A stretch of DNA of 64,000 nucleotides from Eledone cirrhosa (lineage: Eukaryota). The stretch covers positions 165,602,001 through 165,666,000 of the forward strand of contig OZ024740.1 of NCBI GenBank assembly GCA_964016885.1, read 5' to 3'. Position numbers and translations under genes: made by a program. This document shows positions 4,002 to 63,310 of this stretch, one piece after another. A model generated the notes under the pieces. That model saw only the letters and a program-made list of their open reading frames with translations. It had not been told where the DNA came from and searched no databases. How positions within the stretch are numbered: the stretch's first letter is position 1; each line of letters starts with the position of its first letter.

Positions 4002-4177
4002 CAGTGAAATTCCGTTATAACGAAATTCACGTGGTATTAAAACAAATTCGTTGTACCCAAAACTTCTTTATAAGGAGATCGACCTAACAAATCGACCGAG
4101 TGGCCTGGAATTGAAAAAAAATTAGTTATACTGAAAAATTCGTTATTATGGTATTCGTTATAATGGAATTTTACCTG
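4002..4177. mobile_element. pogo/Tigger-like MITE
   Basis: TIRs CAGTGAAATTCCGTTATAACGAA / TTCGTTATAATGGAATTTTACCTG in TA-rich flanks. Confidence 0.7.
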
Positions 4178-4223
4178 TATATGTATATATATATATATAT
4201 ATATATACATATACAGGTAATAC

Positions 4224-4290
<67 letters not shown>

Positions 4291-4291
<1 letters not shown>

Positions 4292-4390
4292 GTAGGTCCC
4301 GGGTTGAGTCGGGGATAACCACAGTAAGTAAGGTACTCAATACATGGCAGAGTAAATATTTTTTATTTTATAGAAGGAGCTTCTACAGCG
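4291..4390 (-). mobile_element. 3' tail of HHR element family C
   Basis: Homologous to 52717-52820 and 59648-59700 (TAACCACAGTAAG..GGTACTCAATACAT). Abuts (TA)n. Confidence 0.7.
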
Positions 4391-4627
4391 ACGTACTCTT
4401 GTTTTGTTTCATTTACGATGGAAAGAGATGATGATATTAAGCATCATTTCTTGAACACCTAACATTCTAAGGACAATCCAGAGAGCATCTCTAGAAACCG
4501 TGTCAAATGCTTGTGGGAGAACAACAAAAAGGACAAAGAGCTCCTTATCGTGATGTACATTTTCCTGCAGTTGCCACAGACTGAAAATCAATTACACAGT
4601 GCCGCTATAAGAGCGAAAACCACACTG
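4389..4627 (-). repeat. Inverted duplication of 4702-4941
   Basis: Near-identical reverse complement of about 240 bp. Confidence 0.9.
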
Positions 4628-4654
4628 TATATATATATATATATATACAGAGTA

Positions 4655-4920
4655 TGTACATAAAATTCTTGGCAGGGCCATTTTCAGTTTTGCCCGAATC
4701 ACAGTGTGGTTTTCGCTCTCATAGCGGCACTGTGTAATTGATTTTCAGTCTGTGACAACTGCAGGGAAATGTACATCACGATAAGGAGCTCTTTGTCCTT
4801 TTTGTTGTTCTCCCACAAGCATTTGACACGGTTTCTAGAGATGCTCTCTGGATTGTCCTTAGAATGTTAGGTGTTCAAGAAATGATGCTTAATATCATCA
4901 TCTCTTTCCATCGTAAATAA
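4655..4920 (+). pseudogene. RTE-clade LINE RT fragment
   Basis: Translates (with frameshifts) to LPESQCGFR..IFSL.QLQ..FVVLPQAFDTVSRDALW.VL..LG. Confidence 0.75.
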
Positions 4921-5489
4921 AAACAAAACAAGAGTACGTCGTTGCACTACTCCTGTTTGCTTTGTATTACCCGGACATGATTTAAACAGCTTCTTAAAAT
5001 GACAAAACCACAGTGGCACTAAGGTTGTCATTTTGAGGAACAGCATGCTGCCAGCACACAGTGATATTGATGCAGTCCACTCGAGGAAGCAAGTGGGGTG
5101 GGGGTGGGGGATCCACAGAAAAGTGTCTTTACCCGATTTTCTAACCTATTATAGCAACCAACTATATCTATTTTCTTCTTCTGAGTCTTCCAACATTTCC
5201 TATGAGCAACATATATATGTGTGTATAACAACAACAATAATAATAATAATAATAATCATTATTATTATCATTATTATTATTAACACATTAAAAAGTTAAA
5301 CAAGTAATTTCTGATTTCACCCTAAACCGAGATGATCTGAAACTGAGAGATATAAATCTGTGGACACAGAAGTAAATATTTTAAAATGACGATCAAATAT
5401 TGCCTTTGGAAAACAGAAAAACATAACAGTAGCGCGTAAAGAACATCTCTTCAGATGCAGCGAAACATATGAACATCTAGAGTCGGAAA

Positions 5490-7556: not shown

Positions 7557-7880
7557 AAAGTGTTAAACAATATTCAATGATTATGTCAAAGAATGAGTTT
7601 TACAGTAGATTGGAAGCACTCAACGAAAAATAATTTTCTGGGGTTATTAATATTAAAATATAAGTATTAATAAAATAGATGTTCTTTTGATCAATTACAT
7701 TTTATTATACATATTTCGGATGTACAACAGTACGTCCTCATCAGACAAAATATAAGGATACATGACATACGCTGAGATGTTAAATGGTTAATATTTAACC
7801 ATTTAACATCTCAGGGTACATCCGAAATATGTATAATAAAATGTAATTGATCAAAAGAACATCTATTTTATTAATACTTA

Positions 7881-7885
<5 letters not shown>
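7557..7885 (-). mobile_element. (TA)n-embedded fold-back HHR element
   Basis: 7657-7725 inverted at 7816-7885; 7772-7790 inverted at 7795-7814; HHR inside. Confidence 0.75.
7704..7750 (-). ncRNA. Type I hammerhead ribozyme
   Basis: CTGATGA ggacgtac tgtt gtacatcc GAAA tatg TA; stem I weak. Confidence 0.7.
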
Positions 7886-7975
<90 letters not shown>

Positions 7976-8803: not shown

Positions 8804-8993
8804 GAAAATGTTAAGCCCCGACGGCAGGGCTCAAGCCGTATCGACGGTTATTTCTTGACCACAAATAGCCGTCGAAACGGCTTGAGCTCTGCCGTCGGCG
8901 TTTAATATTTTCTATTACCCAATTTACTACCCTAAGTATTAAGTACTCTGGTGCGTTATGGTCCATCTAGTTCTCTCCAGCGGTCTCCTTCGT
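8804..8993 (+). mobile_element. Hairpin element family D
   Basis: Arms 8804-8853/8863-8912; GAAA CGGC..GCCG TC; conserved tail ending at TA. Confidence 0.7.
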
Positions 8994-9001
8994 TATATAA
9001 T

Positions 9002-9063
9002 GAGGTACAGAGACCGTTGGAGAGAACTCGTCCATGGATCTCGGGAATTTTACCCGTCCTAGA
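9002..9063 (+). mobile_element. ~60-bp 3' terminus of the RTE family at 16765-18465
   Basis: Near-identical to 18397-18458. Confidence 0.85.
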
Positions 9064-9278: not shown

Positions 9279-9772
9279 CAGATAAATCCACCAATTAATG
9301 GTAGGGTCCAAGCCATAGGAAGAACTCAATGTAAGCCGTATGTAGAATATGTCGTGAAGCTTAAAATACAAAAATTCAGCGATATAATTCATTGGAAGCA
9401 GAGTGAAAATAATACAAATAGTGAAAACAATGAAATTAAACAAAATACGGGTAATTCATAGTAAAACTCATTATTTTACGATCGTTACTAGGGGGTAGTT
9501 CTCCGTATGTTCATTCTATTAGTGATCTATGTAAAATATATTACAAATTATCAAAGTAAGAAAATATACATACGTCTTCTCATCACGCCGTCTTCAGAGA
9601 ACACGTATGTATATTTTCTTACTTTGATAATTTGTAATATATTTTGCATAGATCACTAATAGAATGAATATACGGAGAACTAACCCCCCCCCCCGAAATG
9701 ATTGTAAAATAATGAGTTTTACTACGAATTACCCGTATTTTGTTTAATTTCATTGTTTTCGCTATTTGTATT
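9279..9772 (-). mobile_element. (TA)n-embedded fold-back element
   Basis: 9410-9575 inverted at 9603-9772; minus-strand CTGAAGA in the spacer; single-copy tail 9279-9409. Confidence 0.7.
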
Positions 9773-9799
9773 ATGTATATATATATATATTTATACACG

Positions 9800-9927: not shown

Positions 9928-10084
9928 AATGAGCCAGGACTCTGACAGCTGGCCTCTTGCCGTTTCAACAGCTAGTTCAACTAGCGGTTGAAACGGCAAG
10001 AGCGTAGCCGTCGGGGTCTTGACTCATTTATATAACCATACTCTGCTACCTCAAGTATCGAGTAATCTGGTGAGTAATGGCCTA
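9928..10084 (+). mobile_element. Hairpin element family D
   Basis: Arms 9928-9977/9979-10028; GAAA CGGC..GCCG TC; same tail as 8804. Confidence 0.7.
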
Positions 10085-10375
10085 AAGTTCAGTCACGATT
10101 GAAAATTCCCCTCCGAGGCACAAGTCCGGGCAAGGTTGTTTGTGGAAGACCAGCAGTTGCCCATGTATACCTCTCCACGCCACCGATGTTGTCCAAGGGA
10201 AGGGCAATGGCCGATACAACTTTCCACCTATGATGTCGAAACTCTTTTTTACAGCTGAGTGAACTGGAGCAACGTGAACTAAAGTGTCTTGCTCAAGAAC
10301 ACAACTCAAAGCCCGATCTGAAAATCAAGCTCACAACCTCACGAGTGTAAGCCCGACGCAAAAATCACTAAGCCT
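10085..10375 (-). mobile_element. tRNA-derived SINE family 2
   Basis: Minus-strand tRNA-like head GGCTTAGTG..GAGCTTGATT followed by GTGTTCTTGAGCAAGACACTTT core. Confidence 0.7.
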
Positions 10376-11298: not shown

Positions 11299-11483
11299 CA
11301 GATAGGGCGGGGTAAAACCATCTAGACTATAACCCACCAAAGTACTTGATGCTTGGGCGAGTTGAGTGACTAATATGAAAAGATTCAGGACCGCGACGAC
11401 TGAGCTCCGGCCGTTTAGACAGCTAGATCCGAACTAGCTGTTGCAACGGCCGGAGCTCAGCCATCGAGGTCCTGAATCTTTTC

Positions 11484-11487
<4 letters not shown>
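11299..11487 (-). mobile_element. Hairpin element family D
   Basis: Hairpin 11373-11487, tail 11299-11372, TA on both sides. Confidence 0.7.
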
Positions 11488-16705: not shown

Positions 16706-16764
16706 AGAGAGAAAATATTGATATAAACATTTCGAACCAGCAAGTAAGTGTAACCCACAAATAT
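16695..16764 (+). repeat. Left target-site duplication of RTE insertion
   Basis: Matches 18466-18535 with one mismatch. Confidence 0.9.
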
Positions 16765-18457
16765 CAACGAGATCACAGGGAGGAAGAAAAGGTGTTCGAG
16801 TCAGATCCAGGGAACGGGGCCCGAGGATAGGAAGAGGAAATGGCTAGACCATTTTAGGACCCTACTAGGAGTGCCACCCTCCACAGCCCAGAGCACTGGG
16901 GAGATCAGGCGGCTGTTTGAGGAACTGGATGTTGAGACAGAGCCCTTCACCAGAGAGGAGCTTCAGAGAGCCAAGAAGAAGATCAAGGAGGGCAAGGCTC
17001 ATGGAGAAGATGGAGTGGCATCAGAGGTGATGAAGAGGTGTGATTTTGATGATATCATCCTGGGGTTCTGTAACGGGGCACTGGAGAAAGGAGTTGCCCC
17101 GAATCATTGGAGGATCAGTAACATCGTCCCAGTGCCAAAGAAGGGAGATCTCTCTAACACCAACAACTACCGGGGAATCTCACTGACGTCACTTGTGGCA
17201 AAGACCCTCAACAGGATGATTCTTAACAGGATCCAGCCTGAGATGGAGAAGAAGCTCAGGGACAACCAGAACGGCTTCAGAGAGGGTAGATCAACCACCA
17301 GTCACATCCTGATGCTGAGGAGGATATTAGAGGGAGCTAGTGCAAAGTGCCTTCCTCCGGTCATGGTTTTCATTGACTTTAGGAAGGCCTTTGATTCTGT
17401 GGACCGTTACTGCCTGATGAAGATCTTACAGGCTAATGGAATCCCCAAGAGGATAGTGGACCTGATATCACTGCTCTACACCAACACCAAAGCCCAAGTC
17501 ATTACACCTGATGGGATGACAGAGTTCTTTGAGACACTGGCTGGAGTGCTCCAGGGAGATACATTGGCTCCCTACCTTTTTATCATCGTAGTGGACTATT
17601 GTATGTGCCTTGCACTGGAGAAACACCAGGACTCTGGCTTTACTGTAGCACCGGCTCAGAGCAGGAGAGTTGGGGCGAAAAAGGTATCGGATGCTGAATT
17701 TGCCCACGACATAGTTTTGCTGACAAATACAGTGAAGGAGGCAGAGGATTTGATGCGGGAGGTTGAGACTGTGTCGATGAGTGTGGGGCTGAGAATGAAT
17801 GAGACTAAAACAAAATATCTGGTAGAGAATGTTGAGAAGCCAGAGGGGATCACTAATGTAGGCGGGAAGCCGCTGGAATTGGTTGAGGACTTCCTGTATT
17901 TGGGAGCAAAGATTGGGAATACGGAGGATGATGTGGTTGAGAGGAAGAGCAAGGCCTGGGCGGCGTGCCACAGCTTGAGATCGGTGTGGAAGTTGGACCT
18001 TCATAGAGACCTGAAAATCCGCCTCTTCATTGCTGTAGTGGAGTCTGTGCTGCTGTATGGGTCTGAGACTTGGACACTGACCAAGAAACTCACTCAGATG
18101 GTGGATGGGTGCTACACGAGAATGCTGAGGATGGTTCTGAACATTAATCAGTATACACTGAGGATGAAAAACTCAGAGCTGTATGGGAGCATCCCAAAAG
18201 TCAGCTCAAAAGTGACACAGAGGAGACTGAGGTTGGCTGGACATGCTCACCGACATCCAGAGTTGACATTGCACTCAGTGCTCCTTTGGGAGCCCCTACA
18301 TGGACACACTAGAAGAGGAAGACCAAGGTTAACATATGTTGATGCTCTAAGGACAGACACTGGTCTGTTGGAGATGCAGGATATGGCAGCGATAATGAGG
18401 GACAGAGACCGCTGGAGAGAACTCGTCCATGGATCTCGGGAATTTTACCCGCCTTAG
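16763..18457 (+). CDS. RTE LINE reverse transcriptase, 5'-truncated (no APE domain); catalytic motif reads FAHD
   Basis: Frame open from the insertion edge. Motifs NYRGISLTS, QNGFREGRST, FIDFRKAFDSV, GVLQGDTLAPYLF, FAHDIVL, FLYLG, LLYGSETW, RRLRLAGH, RRGRPRLTY. Confidence 0.9.
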   Translation: MNEITGRKKRCSSQIQGTGPEDRKRKWLDHFRTLLGVPPSTAQSTGEIRRLFEELDVETEPFTREELQRAKKKIKEGKAHGEDGVASEVMKRCDFDDIILGFCNGALEKGVAPNHWRISNIVPVPKKGDLSNTNNYRGISLTSLVAKTLNRMILNRIQPEMEKKLRDNQNGFREGRSTTSHILMLRRILEGASAKCLPPVMVFIDFRKAFDSVDRYCLMKILQANGIPKRIVDLISLLYTNTKAQVITPDGMTEFFETLAGVLQGDTLAPYLFIIVVDYCMCLALEKHQDSGFTVAPAQSRRVGAKKVSDAEFAHDIVLLTNTVKEAEDLMREVETVSMSVGLRMNETKTKYLVENVEKPEGITNVGGKPLELVEDFLYLGAKIGNTEDDVVERKSKAWAACHSLRSVWKLDLHRDLKIRLFIAVVESVLLYGSETWTLTKKLTQMVDGCYTRMLRMVLNINQYTLRMKNSELYGSIPKVSSKVTQRRLRLAGHAHRHPELTLHSVLLWEPLHGHTRRGRPRLTYVDALRTDTGLLEMQDMAAIMRDRDRWRELVHGSREFYPP

Positions 18458-20855: not shown

Positions 20856-21135
20856 ATAATAATAAATGTGAAGACTAAAATTCGAAAAGGGCTCGATAAG
20901 GATAATATATATATCAAAATATATAAAACCATAGAGCAAATATTTATTGAAATAACAGATTAAAATTTAAGCAAAAAAATCGCTGCTGTCATCTTGAACG
21001 GGTTATTCTGAATTTTAGATATATATATATATATGAATGTATATATAGTGTATTTTGGAATACACTGTATGCTTAATTAAAAGCATTTCGAAAACCTTAC
21101 GCTATTTTCATTTTTCAGCAAACAAGAGGAGATAA

Positions 21136-21180
21136 AGCTGACAGAGCTCTGTTTCGTACTGATTGTTACTTATCAAAGCC
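21136..21180 (-). ncRNA. Hammerhead ribozyme, U3-A8 core
   Basis: ggct TTGATAA gtaacaatcagtac GAAA cagagctctg TC agct. Confidence 0.75.
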
Positions 21181-21457
21181 AAGTACTCCACCTGTTTGCT
21201 GAAAATCGTGAATGTTTGATTCTTATAGAATTCTAGTAATATTCAGGAACTGATTATACAGAGCGGTTGCCGGTCAAGCAGAAATTGAAAATTAGAATTG
21301 GTGCTCTGAAATAGCGAGATATATATGAATGCATATATATTGTATTTTGCAATACACTGTATGCTTAATTAAAAGCATTTCGAAGATCTTACGCTATTGT
21401 TTTAGAGTAGTGACAGTCTCACTTACTTTAAATTTTTCAGCAAACAAGGGGAGATAA

Positions 21458-21502
21458 AACTGACAAAGCTCAGTTTCGTACTGATTGGTACTTATCAAAG
21501 CC
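21458..21502 (-). ncRNA. Hammerhead ribozyme, U3-A8 core
   Basis: ggct TTGATAA gtac caatca gtac GAAA ctgagctttg TC agtt. Confidence 0.75.
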
Positions 21503-21614
21503 AAGTACTCCACCTGTTTGCTGAAAATCATGAATGTTTGATTCTTATAGAATTCTAGTAATAATCAGGAACTGATTATACAGAGCGGTTGCCGGTCAAA
21601 CAGGTGGAGTACTT

Positions 21615-21659
21615 GGCTTTGATAAGTACCAATCAGTACGAAACAGAGCTCTGTCAGTT
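21615..21659 (+). ncRNA. Hammerhead ribozyme, U3-A8 core
   Basis: ggct TTGATAA gtac caatca gtac GAAA cagagctctg TC agtt; palindromic stem III. Confidence 0.8.
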
Positions 21660-21802
21660 TTATCTCCCCTTGTTTGCTGAAAATTTAAAGTAAGTGAGAC
21701 TGTTACTACTCTAAAACAATAGCGTAAGGTCTTCGAAATGCTTTTAATTAAGCATACAGTGTATTGCAAAATACACTATATATACATTCATATATATATA
21801 CA

Positions 21803-22241: not shown

Positions 22242-22480
22242 CCAGGGAGTGTAATGCGGAGTTTCTGTAGGTTCACCCGAGTGAGCACTCGATGTTTAGG
22301 TTCACGTCTGTATCGAGGTGTAGAGCTAGACAGCGTGTAGTATAATAAATTAAAAGAAGGACGAGAGGGTACTCATTCATTACGTTAATTCGTTGGTGAT
22401 GCGAATTACGCCACCGTTCAGCTCAACGTTCGATCTGTATCGATCTAGCCCGACTCTGTAATCAACGACTCGTCGGACAT
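22242..22480 (-). mobile_element. Family A copy
   Basis: Colinear with 1813-2135. Confidence 0.7.
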
Positions 22481-22489
22481 TTTTTGGCG

Positions 22490-22720
22490 CTACGGGAGTT
22501 TCCCAAAAGTCAGATTAAAGTGACACATAGAAGATGCAGCTTATCTGGACATATTCATCGACATTTAGTGTTGAACTTTCACTCAGTGGTCCTGTGGGAG
22601 CCCCTACACGAACACACTGGAAGAGGGAGACAGTGGATGATATATGCTGATGCCCTAAAGACAGGAACTGGTCTTTTGGAGACGCGGCTCATAGCAGCGA
22701 TGATGAAGGACAGAGAACGC
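22490..22720 (+). pseudogene. Diverged RTE 3' ORF fragment
   Basis: HSVVLWEPLHEHTGRGR..YADALKT aligns to the C-terminus of the 16763 ORF. Confidence 0.8.
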
Positions 22721-22744: not shown

Positions 22745-23045
22745 ACACATATTTGGAAATATACTGTATGTTTAATTAAAATCATTTAGAAGACAATTCG
22801 CTATGAGTTTTAAAGTAGTGACTATGTCACTTACTTGTTCTCGGCAAAAACTACAGAGAGCGGCCGACATATAGTCTGTTTCTCGTTTGTGAGCGTTTAT
22901 CAAGACCATACACTCACTTGCCTTTGCCGAGAATTATAGGGGCTGGATTCTTGTAGAATTACAGTAATAATCAGGAGCTGATTAAACAGAGCGTTTGCCG
23001 GTCCAGCAAAAATTAGGTATTAGTATTGGTGCTCTGAAATATATA
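22745..23045 (-). mobile_element. Family F single unit (diverged) with HHR at 22862-22907
   Basis: ggtc TTGATAA acgctcacaaacga GAAA cagactatatg TC ggcc inside a TCGGCAAA/TTTGCCGA outer stem. Confidence 0.75.
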
Positions 23046-23870: not shown

Positions 23871-24411
23871 AGACGTAAAATAAGATAATTATAAAAAATT
23901 ACTTACTTACTAAAATTTCACTCCAACTAATTAGTTTCTGAAAGGGAATAAACATGGTTTCCGATTGGAACAACATTGAGAAATATCCTTTCGTCATCAG
24001 GGAGATCTGTTCTCAGCTAAGTTCCCAGGCAATGCGTGGACACAGGGAACTTATACAAAAATAATTCAGTGGATGGAAAAAAGCAAGCGAGGACTGTACA
24101 ATCATTTTTGTATAAGTTCCCTGTGTCCACGCATTGCCTGGGAACTTAGCTGAGAACAGATCTCCCTGATGCGAAACGATATTTCTCCATGTTGTTCCAA
24201 TCGGAAACCATGTTTATTCCCTTTCAGAAACTAATTAGTTGGAGTGAAATTTTAGTAACTAAGTTAATTTTTATAATTTTCTTATTTTACGTCTCTCATA
24301 TTATTTATTCTGCATCCCCTTGCATTGAACCACAAAGTTACTAAGCCAAAACCTATATATTTGCTAGCATAGGTATGCATCTGTGTATATATGTTGGTAG
24401 ATATACTAATT

Positions 24412-41150: not shown

Positions 41151-41530
41151 CGGCGATGAATTAGTTTTGCGAGGTTTTTTATATGAAATCGTGTGTCGAA
41201 ACCAATATTGTTATACTTGGGGACCGCATAAATTTGATTACCGATATAAAAAACACAAGCGAAAAGCGAGAACCAACCAAACAGTGAGTGTGTTCTGTTA
41301 TTAATTCTGGCAATATTACACAAATATGACCCTCCACAAGTATAACAATATATATATATATATATATAAAATTAGAATTGGAGCTCTGAAATAGCAATAT
41401 ATATGGATGTATATATAATGTATTTTGCAATACACTTTATGCTTAATTAAAAGCATTTTGAAGACCGTAAGCTATTGTTTTAAAGTAGTGACAAATTCAC
41501 TCACTTTGATCTCAGCAAACAGGGGAGATA

Positions 41531-41574
41531 AGCCGACATGACATGTTTCGCTTTGGTTGAAGCTTATCAAGGCC
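41531..41574 (-). ncRNA. Hammerhead ribozyme, U3-A8 core
   Basis: ggcc TTGATAA gctt caacca aagc GAAA catgtcatg TC ggct. Confidence 0.82.
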
Positions 41575-41846
41575 AACTACCCCACCTGTCTACTGAGATC
41601 AATGATGTTATATTCTTATAGAAATCTAGTAAATAATCAGGAGCTGATTATGCAGAGCGGTTGTTGGTCAGGCAGAAATTAAAAATTAGAATTGGAGCTC
41701 TGAAATAGCAATATATATATGGATGCATATACAATGTATTTTGCAATACACTTTATGCTTAATTAAAAGCATTTTGAAGACCGTAAGCTATTGTTTTAAA
41801 GTAGTGACAAATTCACTCACTTTGATCTCAGCAAACAGGGGAGATA

Positions 41847-41890
41847 AGCCGACATGACATGTTTCGCTTTGGTTGAAGCTTATCAAGGCC
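41847..41890 (-). ncRNA. Hammerhead ribozyme, U3-A8 core
   Basis: Identical tandem copy. Confidence 0.82.
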
Positions 41891-42286
41891 AACTAGCCCA
41901 CCTGTCTACTGAGATCAATGATGTTATATTCTTATAGAAATCTAGTAAATAATCAGGAGCTGATTATGCAGAGCGGTTGTTGGTCAGGCAGAAATTAAAA
42001 ATTAGAATTGGAACTCTGAAATAGCAATATATATATGGATGTATATATAATGTATTTTGCAATACACTTTATGCTTACGGTCTTCAAAATGCTTTTAATT
42101 AAGCATAAAGTGTATTGCAAAATACATTATATATACATCCATATATATATTGCTATTTCAGAGCTCCAATTCTAATTTTTAATTTCTGCCTGACCAACAA
42201 CCGCTCTGCATAATCAGCTCCTGATTATTTACTAGATTTCTATAAGAATATAACATCATTGATCTCAGTAGACAGGTGGGGTAGTT

Positions 42287-42330
42287 GGCCTTGATAAGCT
42301 TCAACCAAAGCGAAACATGTCATGTCGGCT
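42287..42330 (+). ncRNA. Hammerhead ribozyme, U3-A8 core
   Basis: Identical copy on the inverted arm. Confidence 0.82.
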
Positions 42331-42602
42331 TATCTCCCCTGTTTGCTGAGATCAAAGTGAGTGAATTTGTCACTACTTTAAAACAATAGCTTACGGTCTT
42401 CAAAATGCTTTTAATTAAGCATAAAGTGTATTGCAAAATACATTGTATATGCATCCATATATATATTGCTATTTCAGAGCTCCAATTCTAATTTTTAATT
42501 TCTGCCTGACCAACAACCGCTCTGCATAATCAGCTCCTGATTATTTACTAGATTTCTATAAGAATATAACATCATTGATCTCAGTAGACAGGTGGGGTAG
42601 TT

Positions 42603-42646
42603 GGCCTTGATAAGCTTCAACCAAAGCGAAACATGTCATGTCGGCT
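42603..42646 (+). ncRNA. Hammerhead ribozyme, U3-A8 core
   Basis: Identical copy on the inverted arm. Confidence 0.82.
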
Positions 42647-43065
42647 TATCTCCCCTGTTTGCTGAGATCAAAGTGAGTGAATTTGTCACTACTTTAAAAC
42701 AATAGCTTACGGTCTTCAAAATGCTTTTAATTAAGCATAAAGTGTATTTCAAAATACATTATATATACATATATATATAATTGTTGTGGGATGCTTAAAG
42801 TGTCCGTAAGCGGTAGGCCGTTTGAGCACTCGTTGCTCTTACAGAGCATAAGAAACGGACAATATAATTTATTAGACATATTACAATCATTTCTCTGGCG
42901 ACCAGCTCGAGGCACGATCGATGCAACGATCGAACCTGACTCTGAAATCGCAAGATCCTCAGATACGTCTCGATTATATTGGGAGAAGAGGCTGGCTCTA
43001 CTATTTTGCGTTATTGTTTTCTTAGTTATTCGTTACACATACATACACACACACATACATACATA

Positions 43066-52716: not shown

Positions 52717-52850
52717 GGTAAGTTATTCCGGGTTGAATCGGAGGTAACCACAGTAAGTAAGGTACTCAATACATAGCAGAGTATAAAAGGTTCAATATAG
52801 AAGAGATTCTACAGGACTAGAACTGTTTCATTCGTGAGAAATCATCAGAT
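52717..52850 (-). mobile_element. Family C element with HHR (52814-52848)
   Basis: CTGATGA t ttc tcac gaa t GAAA cagt TC tagtcc; 5' strand of stem I replaced by (TA)n. Confidence 0.7.
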
Positions 52851-53246: not shown

Positions 53247-53550
53247 GATTGGTGCTCTGAAATAGCGATGTATACATGAATGTATGTATAGTATATTTGG
53301 CAATATACCGTATGTTTAATTAAAAACATTTTGAAGACCATACGCTATCGGTTTTAAAGTAGTGATATGTCACTAACTTCTTTTCGGCGAAAGAAGGGAG
53401 AGAAGCTAACAGTCAGTTTCACGCTGTTGGCGATCATCAGAGCCACGCACTCCCCGCTTTCGCCGAAAATTATAGAAGCTGGATTCTTATAGAATTCCAG
53501 TGATAATGAGGAGCTGATTATACAGAGCGATTGCCGGTCCAGCAAAAGGT
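53242..53550 (-). mobile_element. Family F single unit
   Basis: Colinear with the 316/322-bp units; (TA)n on both sides. Confidence 0.8.
53404..53444 (-). ncRNA. Hammerhead ribozyme, canonical C3-G8 core
   Basis: ggct CTGATGA t cgc caaca gcg t GAAA ctgactg TT agct, inside outer stem TTTTCGGCGAAAG/CTTTCGCCGAAAA. Confidence 0.8.
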
Positions 53551-53553
53551 AGT

Positions 53554-53608
<55 letters not shown>

Positions 53609-59623: not shown

Positions 59624-59647
59624 TGATAGAGAGAGGGAGAGAGAGAG

Positions 59648-59802
59648 TCCCGGGGTCAATAGGGGCTAACCACAGTAAGGTACTCAATACATTAGTAGGG
59701 TGTATACAATGTTTACAACACATTTAAAGTCGGCTTTCCAGATCATTTCCTTCGAATGGAACAGCTCTAATCCTGTAGAAGCCGTTTCTATATTAAATTT
59801 GT

Positions 59803-63194: not shown

Positions 63195-63310
63195 TAGTTT
63201 GGATCTAGCTATCGAAACGGCCGGAGCTCAGCCGTCGGGATCCTGACTCTTTTCCTATTACCTACTCTGGTGCGTTATGGTCCCCCTGGTATCTTACCAC
63301 ACACTCTTTG

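Follow-up and report, generated by a model that had tools for sequence, protein, structure and literature searches.

A ribozyme-element stub ending at its predicted cut site and joined to an inverted copy of adjacent host DNA at a (TA)n tract of Eledone cirrhosa

The window analysed is a stretch of 64,000 nucleotides from Eledone cirrhosa (contig OZ024740.1 of assembly GCA_964016885.1), and all positions refer to that stretch. The surrounding DNA of the window is AT-rich, rich in microsatellites and of animal type. From left to right, the locus under study holds a (TA)n tract, a short stub of a repeat family, which is called family C and reads on the minus strand, an inverted copy of host DNA, a (TA)10 run, a spacer and the original of the copied DNA (Table 1). 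The 3' end of the stub lies at the usual start of family C (4292-4299).

Table 1. Features of the locus, further copies of family C and selected element ends in the 64,000-nucleotide window.
Feature	Positions	Strand	Basis or remark
13-bp fold-back centred on (TA)12, primer-side end of target tract	4171-4220	.	
(TA)n target tract, primer side	4221-4290	.	sequence; TA/TG repeats border the family's 3' ends in four runs
Family C stub, 98 nt	4291-4388	-	alignment to 52728-52814
Inverted copy of 4701-4941 (new arm)	4389-4628	-	5 differences over 241 columns
(TA)10 with CTG...CAG flanks, likely fold-back centre	4628-4650	.	first ACAG at 4647-4650
Unduplicated part of spacer, start of old RT fragment	4651-4700	+	gapped alignment; frame runs into right arm
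Original host arm	4701-4941	+	LINE RT fragment, decayed, reaching ~4914, then flank; holds second ACAG (4701-4704)
Second family C copy	52717-52848	-	predicted hammerhead core with GUC triplet; extends 34 nt through predicted cut
Third family C copy, two head-to-head arms	59646-59801	.	alignment
Plus arm of third copy	59729-59801	+	decayed core, both stem I arms; reads 44 nt through predicted cut
Ends 34-55 nt upstream of predicted cut	2694, 21600, 52848, 59729		

Masked self-BLAST of the window matches 4299-4388 to 52728-52814 and to 59647-59692. Identity to the former is 83% over 90 nt, and the alignment ends with 4388 opposite 52814. The copy at 52717 carries, on its minus strand, a CTGATGA box, a weak stem II, GAAAC and the triplet GTC. 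Its core lies at 52848-52842, the last base before the predicted cut is 52815 and the first base past it is 52814. The 5' end of the stub is the first base 3' of the predicted hammerhead cut (GUC/C) on the minus strand, an offset of 0. The earlier note had the tail stop within a few nucleotides of the self-cleavage site, at about 4392; the agreement is tighter than that, the end being 4388. Beyond 4388, contigs of two organisms continue with GACT or GACTAG, which is complementary to the cleavage triplet, and this, together with the stem I pairing in the third copy, supports the cut register at 4388.

The hammerhead of family C is a predicted ribozyme, compared here with the marks of type I or minimal hammerheads (CUGANGA, GAAA, NUH and helices I-III). 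Helix I is apparent in the third copy alone: 11 nt immediately upstream of its decayed core pair with the 12 nt starting at the cut. The duplex is worth -10.5 kcal/mol, a value equalled by 78 of 18284 background 12-mers. The predicted stem II has 3 bp, with a U.U at its base and without G10.1-C11.1. An Rfam search gave no hit at gathering score for the family C ribozyme, and a free fold of the family C sequence gave no hammerhead shape. Metazoan minimal hammerheads are described as cleaving poorly as monomers (PMC4209133).

Contigs from four sequencing runs were compared with 4291-4700, of which 4616-4700 was masked. Summed contig depth in one run (X1) falls from ~59,000 at 4375-4388 to 18 at 4389-4402, which indicates that the stub is a very high-copy repeat ending at the junction. 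It is abundant in the second organism too. In each of the four runs loose TA/TG ends occur before 4292-4299, and in run X1 also before 4356, which fits two fixed priming points in microsatellites. Among the contigs listed, one differs from the stub at none of 54 nt (depth 128) and another at one of 59 nt (depth 356); these near-identical, multi-copy contigs show what appears to be a young subfamily of the stub.

Insertion into microsatellites with fixed 3' starts is found for family C, and the third copy has a head-to-head, inverted, 5'-truncated arm. At the focal copy the second arm is host DNA. Head-to-head arms and insertion into TA/TG microsatellites are given as Penelope-type marks (PMC8557442, PMC3846280), and family C is likely to be Penelope-type. 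No long ORF, as the RT plus GIY-YIG frame of an autonomous PLE would be, adjoins its three copies in the window, and masked self-BLAST found no tandem unit there, a mark of non-LTR retrozymes, so a pLTR stub and a retrozyme look the same at this locus. A 27-nt family C motif had no match in viral and prokaryote contigs. A 19-nt motif had one match in a metagenome, with flanks unrelated by eye, and it was taken as chance. The family motif is absent from the one supplement file of PMC8557442 that was searched.

The 5' ends of elements were mapped relative to the predicted cut in three ribozyme families with clear registers, giving 12 ends in this window, with arm limits taken from masked self-BLAST and inspection. 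The offsets are -177, -52; -137, -55, +147, +89, +67, -152; 0, -34, -44; and ~+20 (by eye). Only one of the 12 ends is exactly at a cut, and the same arms read through cut sites 14 times (3 + 9 + 2), so that run-off at the cut can be no more than a minor route. With ends spread over 300 nt, at least one exact end has a probability of 0.04, and over 150 nt one of 0.08, which is only modestly beyond chance and before selection across many windows. Four ends, from three families, lie at -34 to -55, which is the upstream edge of the ribozyme (P 0.009, post hoc). Not counted here is an element at 7650-7891, whose ends lie near -20 and farther upstream and which contributes two more read-throughs. 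The stub end had been put forward as in vivo evidence of cleavage. The exact offset does suggest this, but with 1 of 12 ends at the cut, 14 read-throughs and more ends upstream it falls short of proof. PMC11167929 reports that cleavage is not required for insertion in vitro and that no RNA-seq ends fall at the cut of the anole element. Animal retrozymes are described as accumulating as cleaved linear monomers (PMC7229834).

The DNA beyond the stub is a reverse complement of nearby host sequence. The arms, of 240 and 241 nt, differ by four substitutions and one gap (4406, the gap; 4410; 4563; 4574; 4609) and are 72 nt apart. Masked self-BLAST gives the inverted repeat as 4386-4621/4708-4944 at 97.5%, which is far past chance expectation. 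The 240-bp reverse complement followed by (TA)n that had been noticed earlier was thereby confirmed, with (TA)10 at 4628-4647. The copied DNA had been read as an old RTE fragment, which holds at the level of a decayed RT of LINE type: the match to RVT_1 has an E of 4e-4, below the curated cut-off, and direct comparison with the window's own RT ORF gives 28% identity (E 1e-5), a match that tblastn with the same ORF missed. That ORF is a 567-codon open LINE RT frame at 16754-18457 (RVT_1, E 1e-29), with 3' fragments at 8997-9056 and 22451-22720.

The RT frame of the flank begins in the spacer, and its LPESQCGFR motif spans the border between spacer and arm. This continuity identifies the right arm and spacer as the old sequence and the left arm as the new one. 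The copied flank had been called downstream; it is adjacent, but since the element reads on the minus strand, it is the 5' (upstream) flank. The site before insertion most likely consisted of the left flank, (TA)n and then 4648 onward. Stub and arm abut directly, without untemplated bases, and the outer junction has an imperfect microhomology of 2 bp and one G.T (4386-4388 against 4942-4944). No target-site duplication is readable in the (TA)n. As in foldback of the L1 type, neighbouring target DNA recurs inverted 5' of the insert, with a short unduplicated loop between the arms.

The inner end of the palindrome reads CACTG (TA)10 CAGAG. Copy and original align as one palindrome centred on the TA run, from which 54 nt are missing, namely those between two ACAG (4651-4704), which were skipped in the copy. 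Direct priming at 4701 would have only one matching terminal base. The (TA)10 hairpin with its ACAG/ACAG pair offers self-pairing able to prime synthesis at the fold. The CAG is explained equally well by a TA hairpin with a slip and by a full palindrome with a later deletion.

A further fold-back, at 4171-4220, is found 70 nt from the stub in the same tract. It duplicates the right terminus of an element at ~4003-4177, which is ~175 nt long, bounded by terminal inverted repeats that start with CAG after TA, and MITE-like. TA-centred fold-backs were filtered as runs of (TA) of at least 4 units with reverse-complementary flanks of at least 8 nt, including at least 3 G/C. Only the one at 4171-4220 passes, among 188 TA runs; four longer or similar matches within low-complexity arrays fail the filter. 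Our reading is that both DNA ends snapped back on TA, and that the right one copied 240 nt and then joined the cDNA.

The differences between the arms are lopsided. At one codon the left arm still reads Trp and the right arm a stop; at another the left arm has Glu, which we take to be the usual RT residue, and the right arm Gly. A contig of run X1 (532 nt, depth 8.9) matches 4389-4608 without differences, agrees with the copied (left) arm at all four diagnostic sites and does not align to the stub. Its other 312 nt, if they are right flank, would end at 5253 in (AAT)n, an expected break, and the contig may represent an allele without the stub junction that carries left-arm letters. This could reflect mutation of the right arm, its exchange with another haplotype, or a copy templated by the homologue. 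Given this lopsidedness, the 2% divergence of the arms is an upper bound on age. Contigs of the second organism cover only short parts of the arm, and among the contigs listed none spans the junction of stub and arm. None of the loose ends listed (24 of 220) lies at 4388, which weighs neither way.

Our main reading, at a probability of roughly 0.6, is that the stub and the inverted 5' flank formed in a single Penelope-type insertion, in which the second cut end folded on its own (TA)n. Target-primed insertion into the (TA)n and copying of the flank would probably be one event. A Penelope-type endonuclease would cut both strands within the (TA)n tract. The left 3' end, after its own 13-bp snap-back, would prime cDNA at the family's usual start, and synthesis would stop after 98 nt. 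The right 3' end would pair with itself on (TA)10, add CAG, slip 54 nt to the next ACAG and copy 240 nt of its own strand, that is, host DNA in place of element RNA. The new right end would then be joined to the cDNA end through imperfect pairing over 2-3 nt. Either Pol theta or the element's own RT could have served as polymerase: Pol theta is reported to extend stem-loops from 2 base pairs (PMC11292364), and a PLE protein to cleave and extend both strands at AT-rich DNA (PMC11167929). For this copy we lean slightly, by judgement and not by computation, towards the stop at 98 nt being a run-off from ribozyme-cut RNA. What results is a repair scar, and nothing in it points to a function. The lopsided divergence counts against this model, whose simple form does not predict that the copy keeps the more intact RT codons or that a contig agrees with it at all four diagnostic sites.

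The same product could have arisen by the route that the earlier note proposed, in which the RT reached the end of the cleaved RNA and the 3' end of its cDNA then primed on the top strand of the flank at 4941, by jump or snap-back. The local inverted flank copy belonging to that proposal is present, and the junction lies exactly at the cut without inserted bases. The jump itself has less in its favour. It needs a 5'-terminated strand exposed 300 nt from the break, and resection removes that strand in double-strand break repair. The cDNA primer would end on the G.T wobble, a pair that would lie internally, with the last two bases perfectly paired, if the flank strand primes. A second switch at ACAG would still be required, and the 13-bp fold-back at the other end would be left unexplained. 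A cDNA-primed snap-back onto nearby target is known for R2, especially after full-length cDNA (PMC11371274). The fold-back marks at (TA)n at both ends of the insertion, together with the L1 parallel, favour self-priming of the cut DNA end, and we regard the jump as unlikely.

Slightly less probable still is a history of two events, in which a break or replication slip in (TA)n made the duplication, the stub was inserted at its edge or templated later, and the end at the cut site is chance. (TA)n tracts do self-pair, the fold-back at 4171-4220 may be independent of the insertion, and a palindrome at 23871-24294 adjoins (TA)n with no visible tail, though it may itself be an element; one exact end among 12 has a chance of 0.04-0.08, before selection across many windows. 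Against this, stub and arm are joined without TA between them, although the 3' ends of the family target TA/TG repeats. Both look young, the stub being 0-1 letters from multi-copy contigs over 54-59 nt and the arms ~2% apart, and two other candidate tail-less controls are, or resemble, ribozyme elements. An assembly artefact, either a chimeric fold-back read or a joining of two haplotypes in opposite directions, would agree with the lack of a junction-spanning contig among those listed and with the 532-nt contig that matches the left arm exactly and leaves the stub unaligned. Contigs drop rare alleles, however, 4616-4700 was masked and only part of the contigs were listed; the arms differ at 5 sites, unlike a single fold-back read, and the copy lacks the 54 nt between the microhomologies and ends at a biologically meaningful base. 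An artefact is very improbable.

The earlier note saw in the locus a mechanism for host palindromes, and a single window neither supports nor refutes such a mechanism in general. The large inverted repeats of the window mostly pair element with element; host DNA could be demonstrated in a single palindrome, the one at the focal locus. Three candidates beside (TA)n were considered as tail-less host controls: 7650-7891 was rejected as it holds a hammerhead, 9409-9774 has a decayed core and is probably a hammerhead element, and the third is 23871-24294. The first of these is a two-armed element with its core at 7744 on the minus strand, a GAAAU variant, an 11-bp stem I and a nested 20-bp hairpin between the arms. 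The palindromes at 23871-24294 and 9409-9774, with arms of ~200 and ~170 bp, are each bordered by (TA)n on one outer side and occur once in the window, and each may be a host fold-back or an element.

Other repeats of the window carry hammerhead-like features. A 316-nt hammerhead family (21035-21797, 22749-23041 and 41368-42779, compared with 53248-53556) has a U3-A8 core (TTGATAA) at three loci, of which two match the descriptor and one was recognised by eye; its fourth locus has the canonical C3-G8 core. A covariant core of the U3-A8 kind has been described from Schistosoma PLEs (PMC4209133). A second family (8804-8990, 9928-10085, 11300-11487, 63195-63300) has a perfect-looking 50-bp hairpin adjoined by a 3' motif that resembles, by eye, the TAACC...GTACTC...ATAC of family C; no canonical hammerhead core was found in it. 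A repeat with inverted arms at 1813-2286 and 22242-22478 shows CTGATCA/GAAAC boxes in an unusual order (by eye), and may be a variant or permuted hammerhead.

Scars of this class are already known. Foldback inversion at the 5' end of L1 has been reported in 3 + 1 cases, of 52-220 bp and at ~0.4% (Nam et al. 2023, PMC10191854), and L1 inverted duplications have been explained by self-annealing of the reciprocal end, with a TA/AT hairpin as primer (10.1101/2024.12.14.628481). As in those cases, an inverted copy of the target lies 5' of a target-primed insert, of 240 bp here against 52-220 bp, and a small TA/AT hairpin is the proposed primer. The present insert, in contrast, is a hammerhead Penelope-type stub without poly(A) in a (TA)n target, with an extra 54-nt slip and a fold-back on the primer side too; the L1 cases come from tumours or clones and this one from a genome assembly. 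The snap-back of R2/PRINT (PMC11371274, PMC11331408) is similar in that a ribozyme sets the RNA 5' end and cDNA is joined to the reverse complement of nearby target. There, HDV-like cleavage is demonstrated and the cDNA end is taken as the primer; in the present case the cleavage is a prediction, and the fold-back mark sits on the side of the flank.

Endonuclease-bearing PLEs with minimal hammerheads and animal non-LTR retrozymes (PMC4209133, PMC8557442, PMC3846280, PMC7229834, 10.64898/2026.07.22.740005) share a type I hammerhead near the 3' end, 5'-truncated stubs, head-to-head arms and microsatellite targets. They differ in the second arm, which at the focal locus is host DNA and not element. 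In titles and the beginnings of abstracts, with most subscription papers and bioRxiv supplements outside this coverage, no description was found of PLE truncation at the cleavage site or of PLE insertions that duplicate host flank. Particular to this locus is the combination of an end exactly at the predicted cut, a second arm of host DNA and TA fold-backs at both ends.

The inverted flank extends a scar type of somatic L1 insertions to a ribozyme element, and the locus shows one way in which (TA)n breaks can create palindromes, as a single example and not as a rule. On the role of the hammerhead in Penelope-like elements, circular templates are the standing proposal (PMC4209133, PMC7229834). 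A broader and doubtful idea is that linear RNA cut by the hammerhead is the in vivo Penelope template, and that an RNA too short diverts the second end onto its own flank, giving rise to host palindromes at (TA)n. If true, the locus would hold a genomic footprint of the PLE cleavage that went undetected in vivo in the papers cited here. The very high copy number of family C suits it to a count of 5' ends, and a family-wide excess at offset 0 would be a DNA-only readout of cleavage in vivo.
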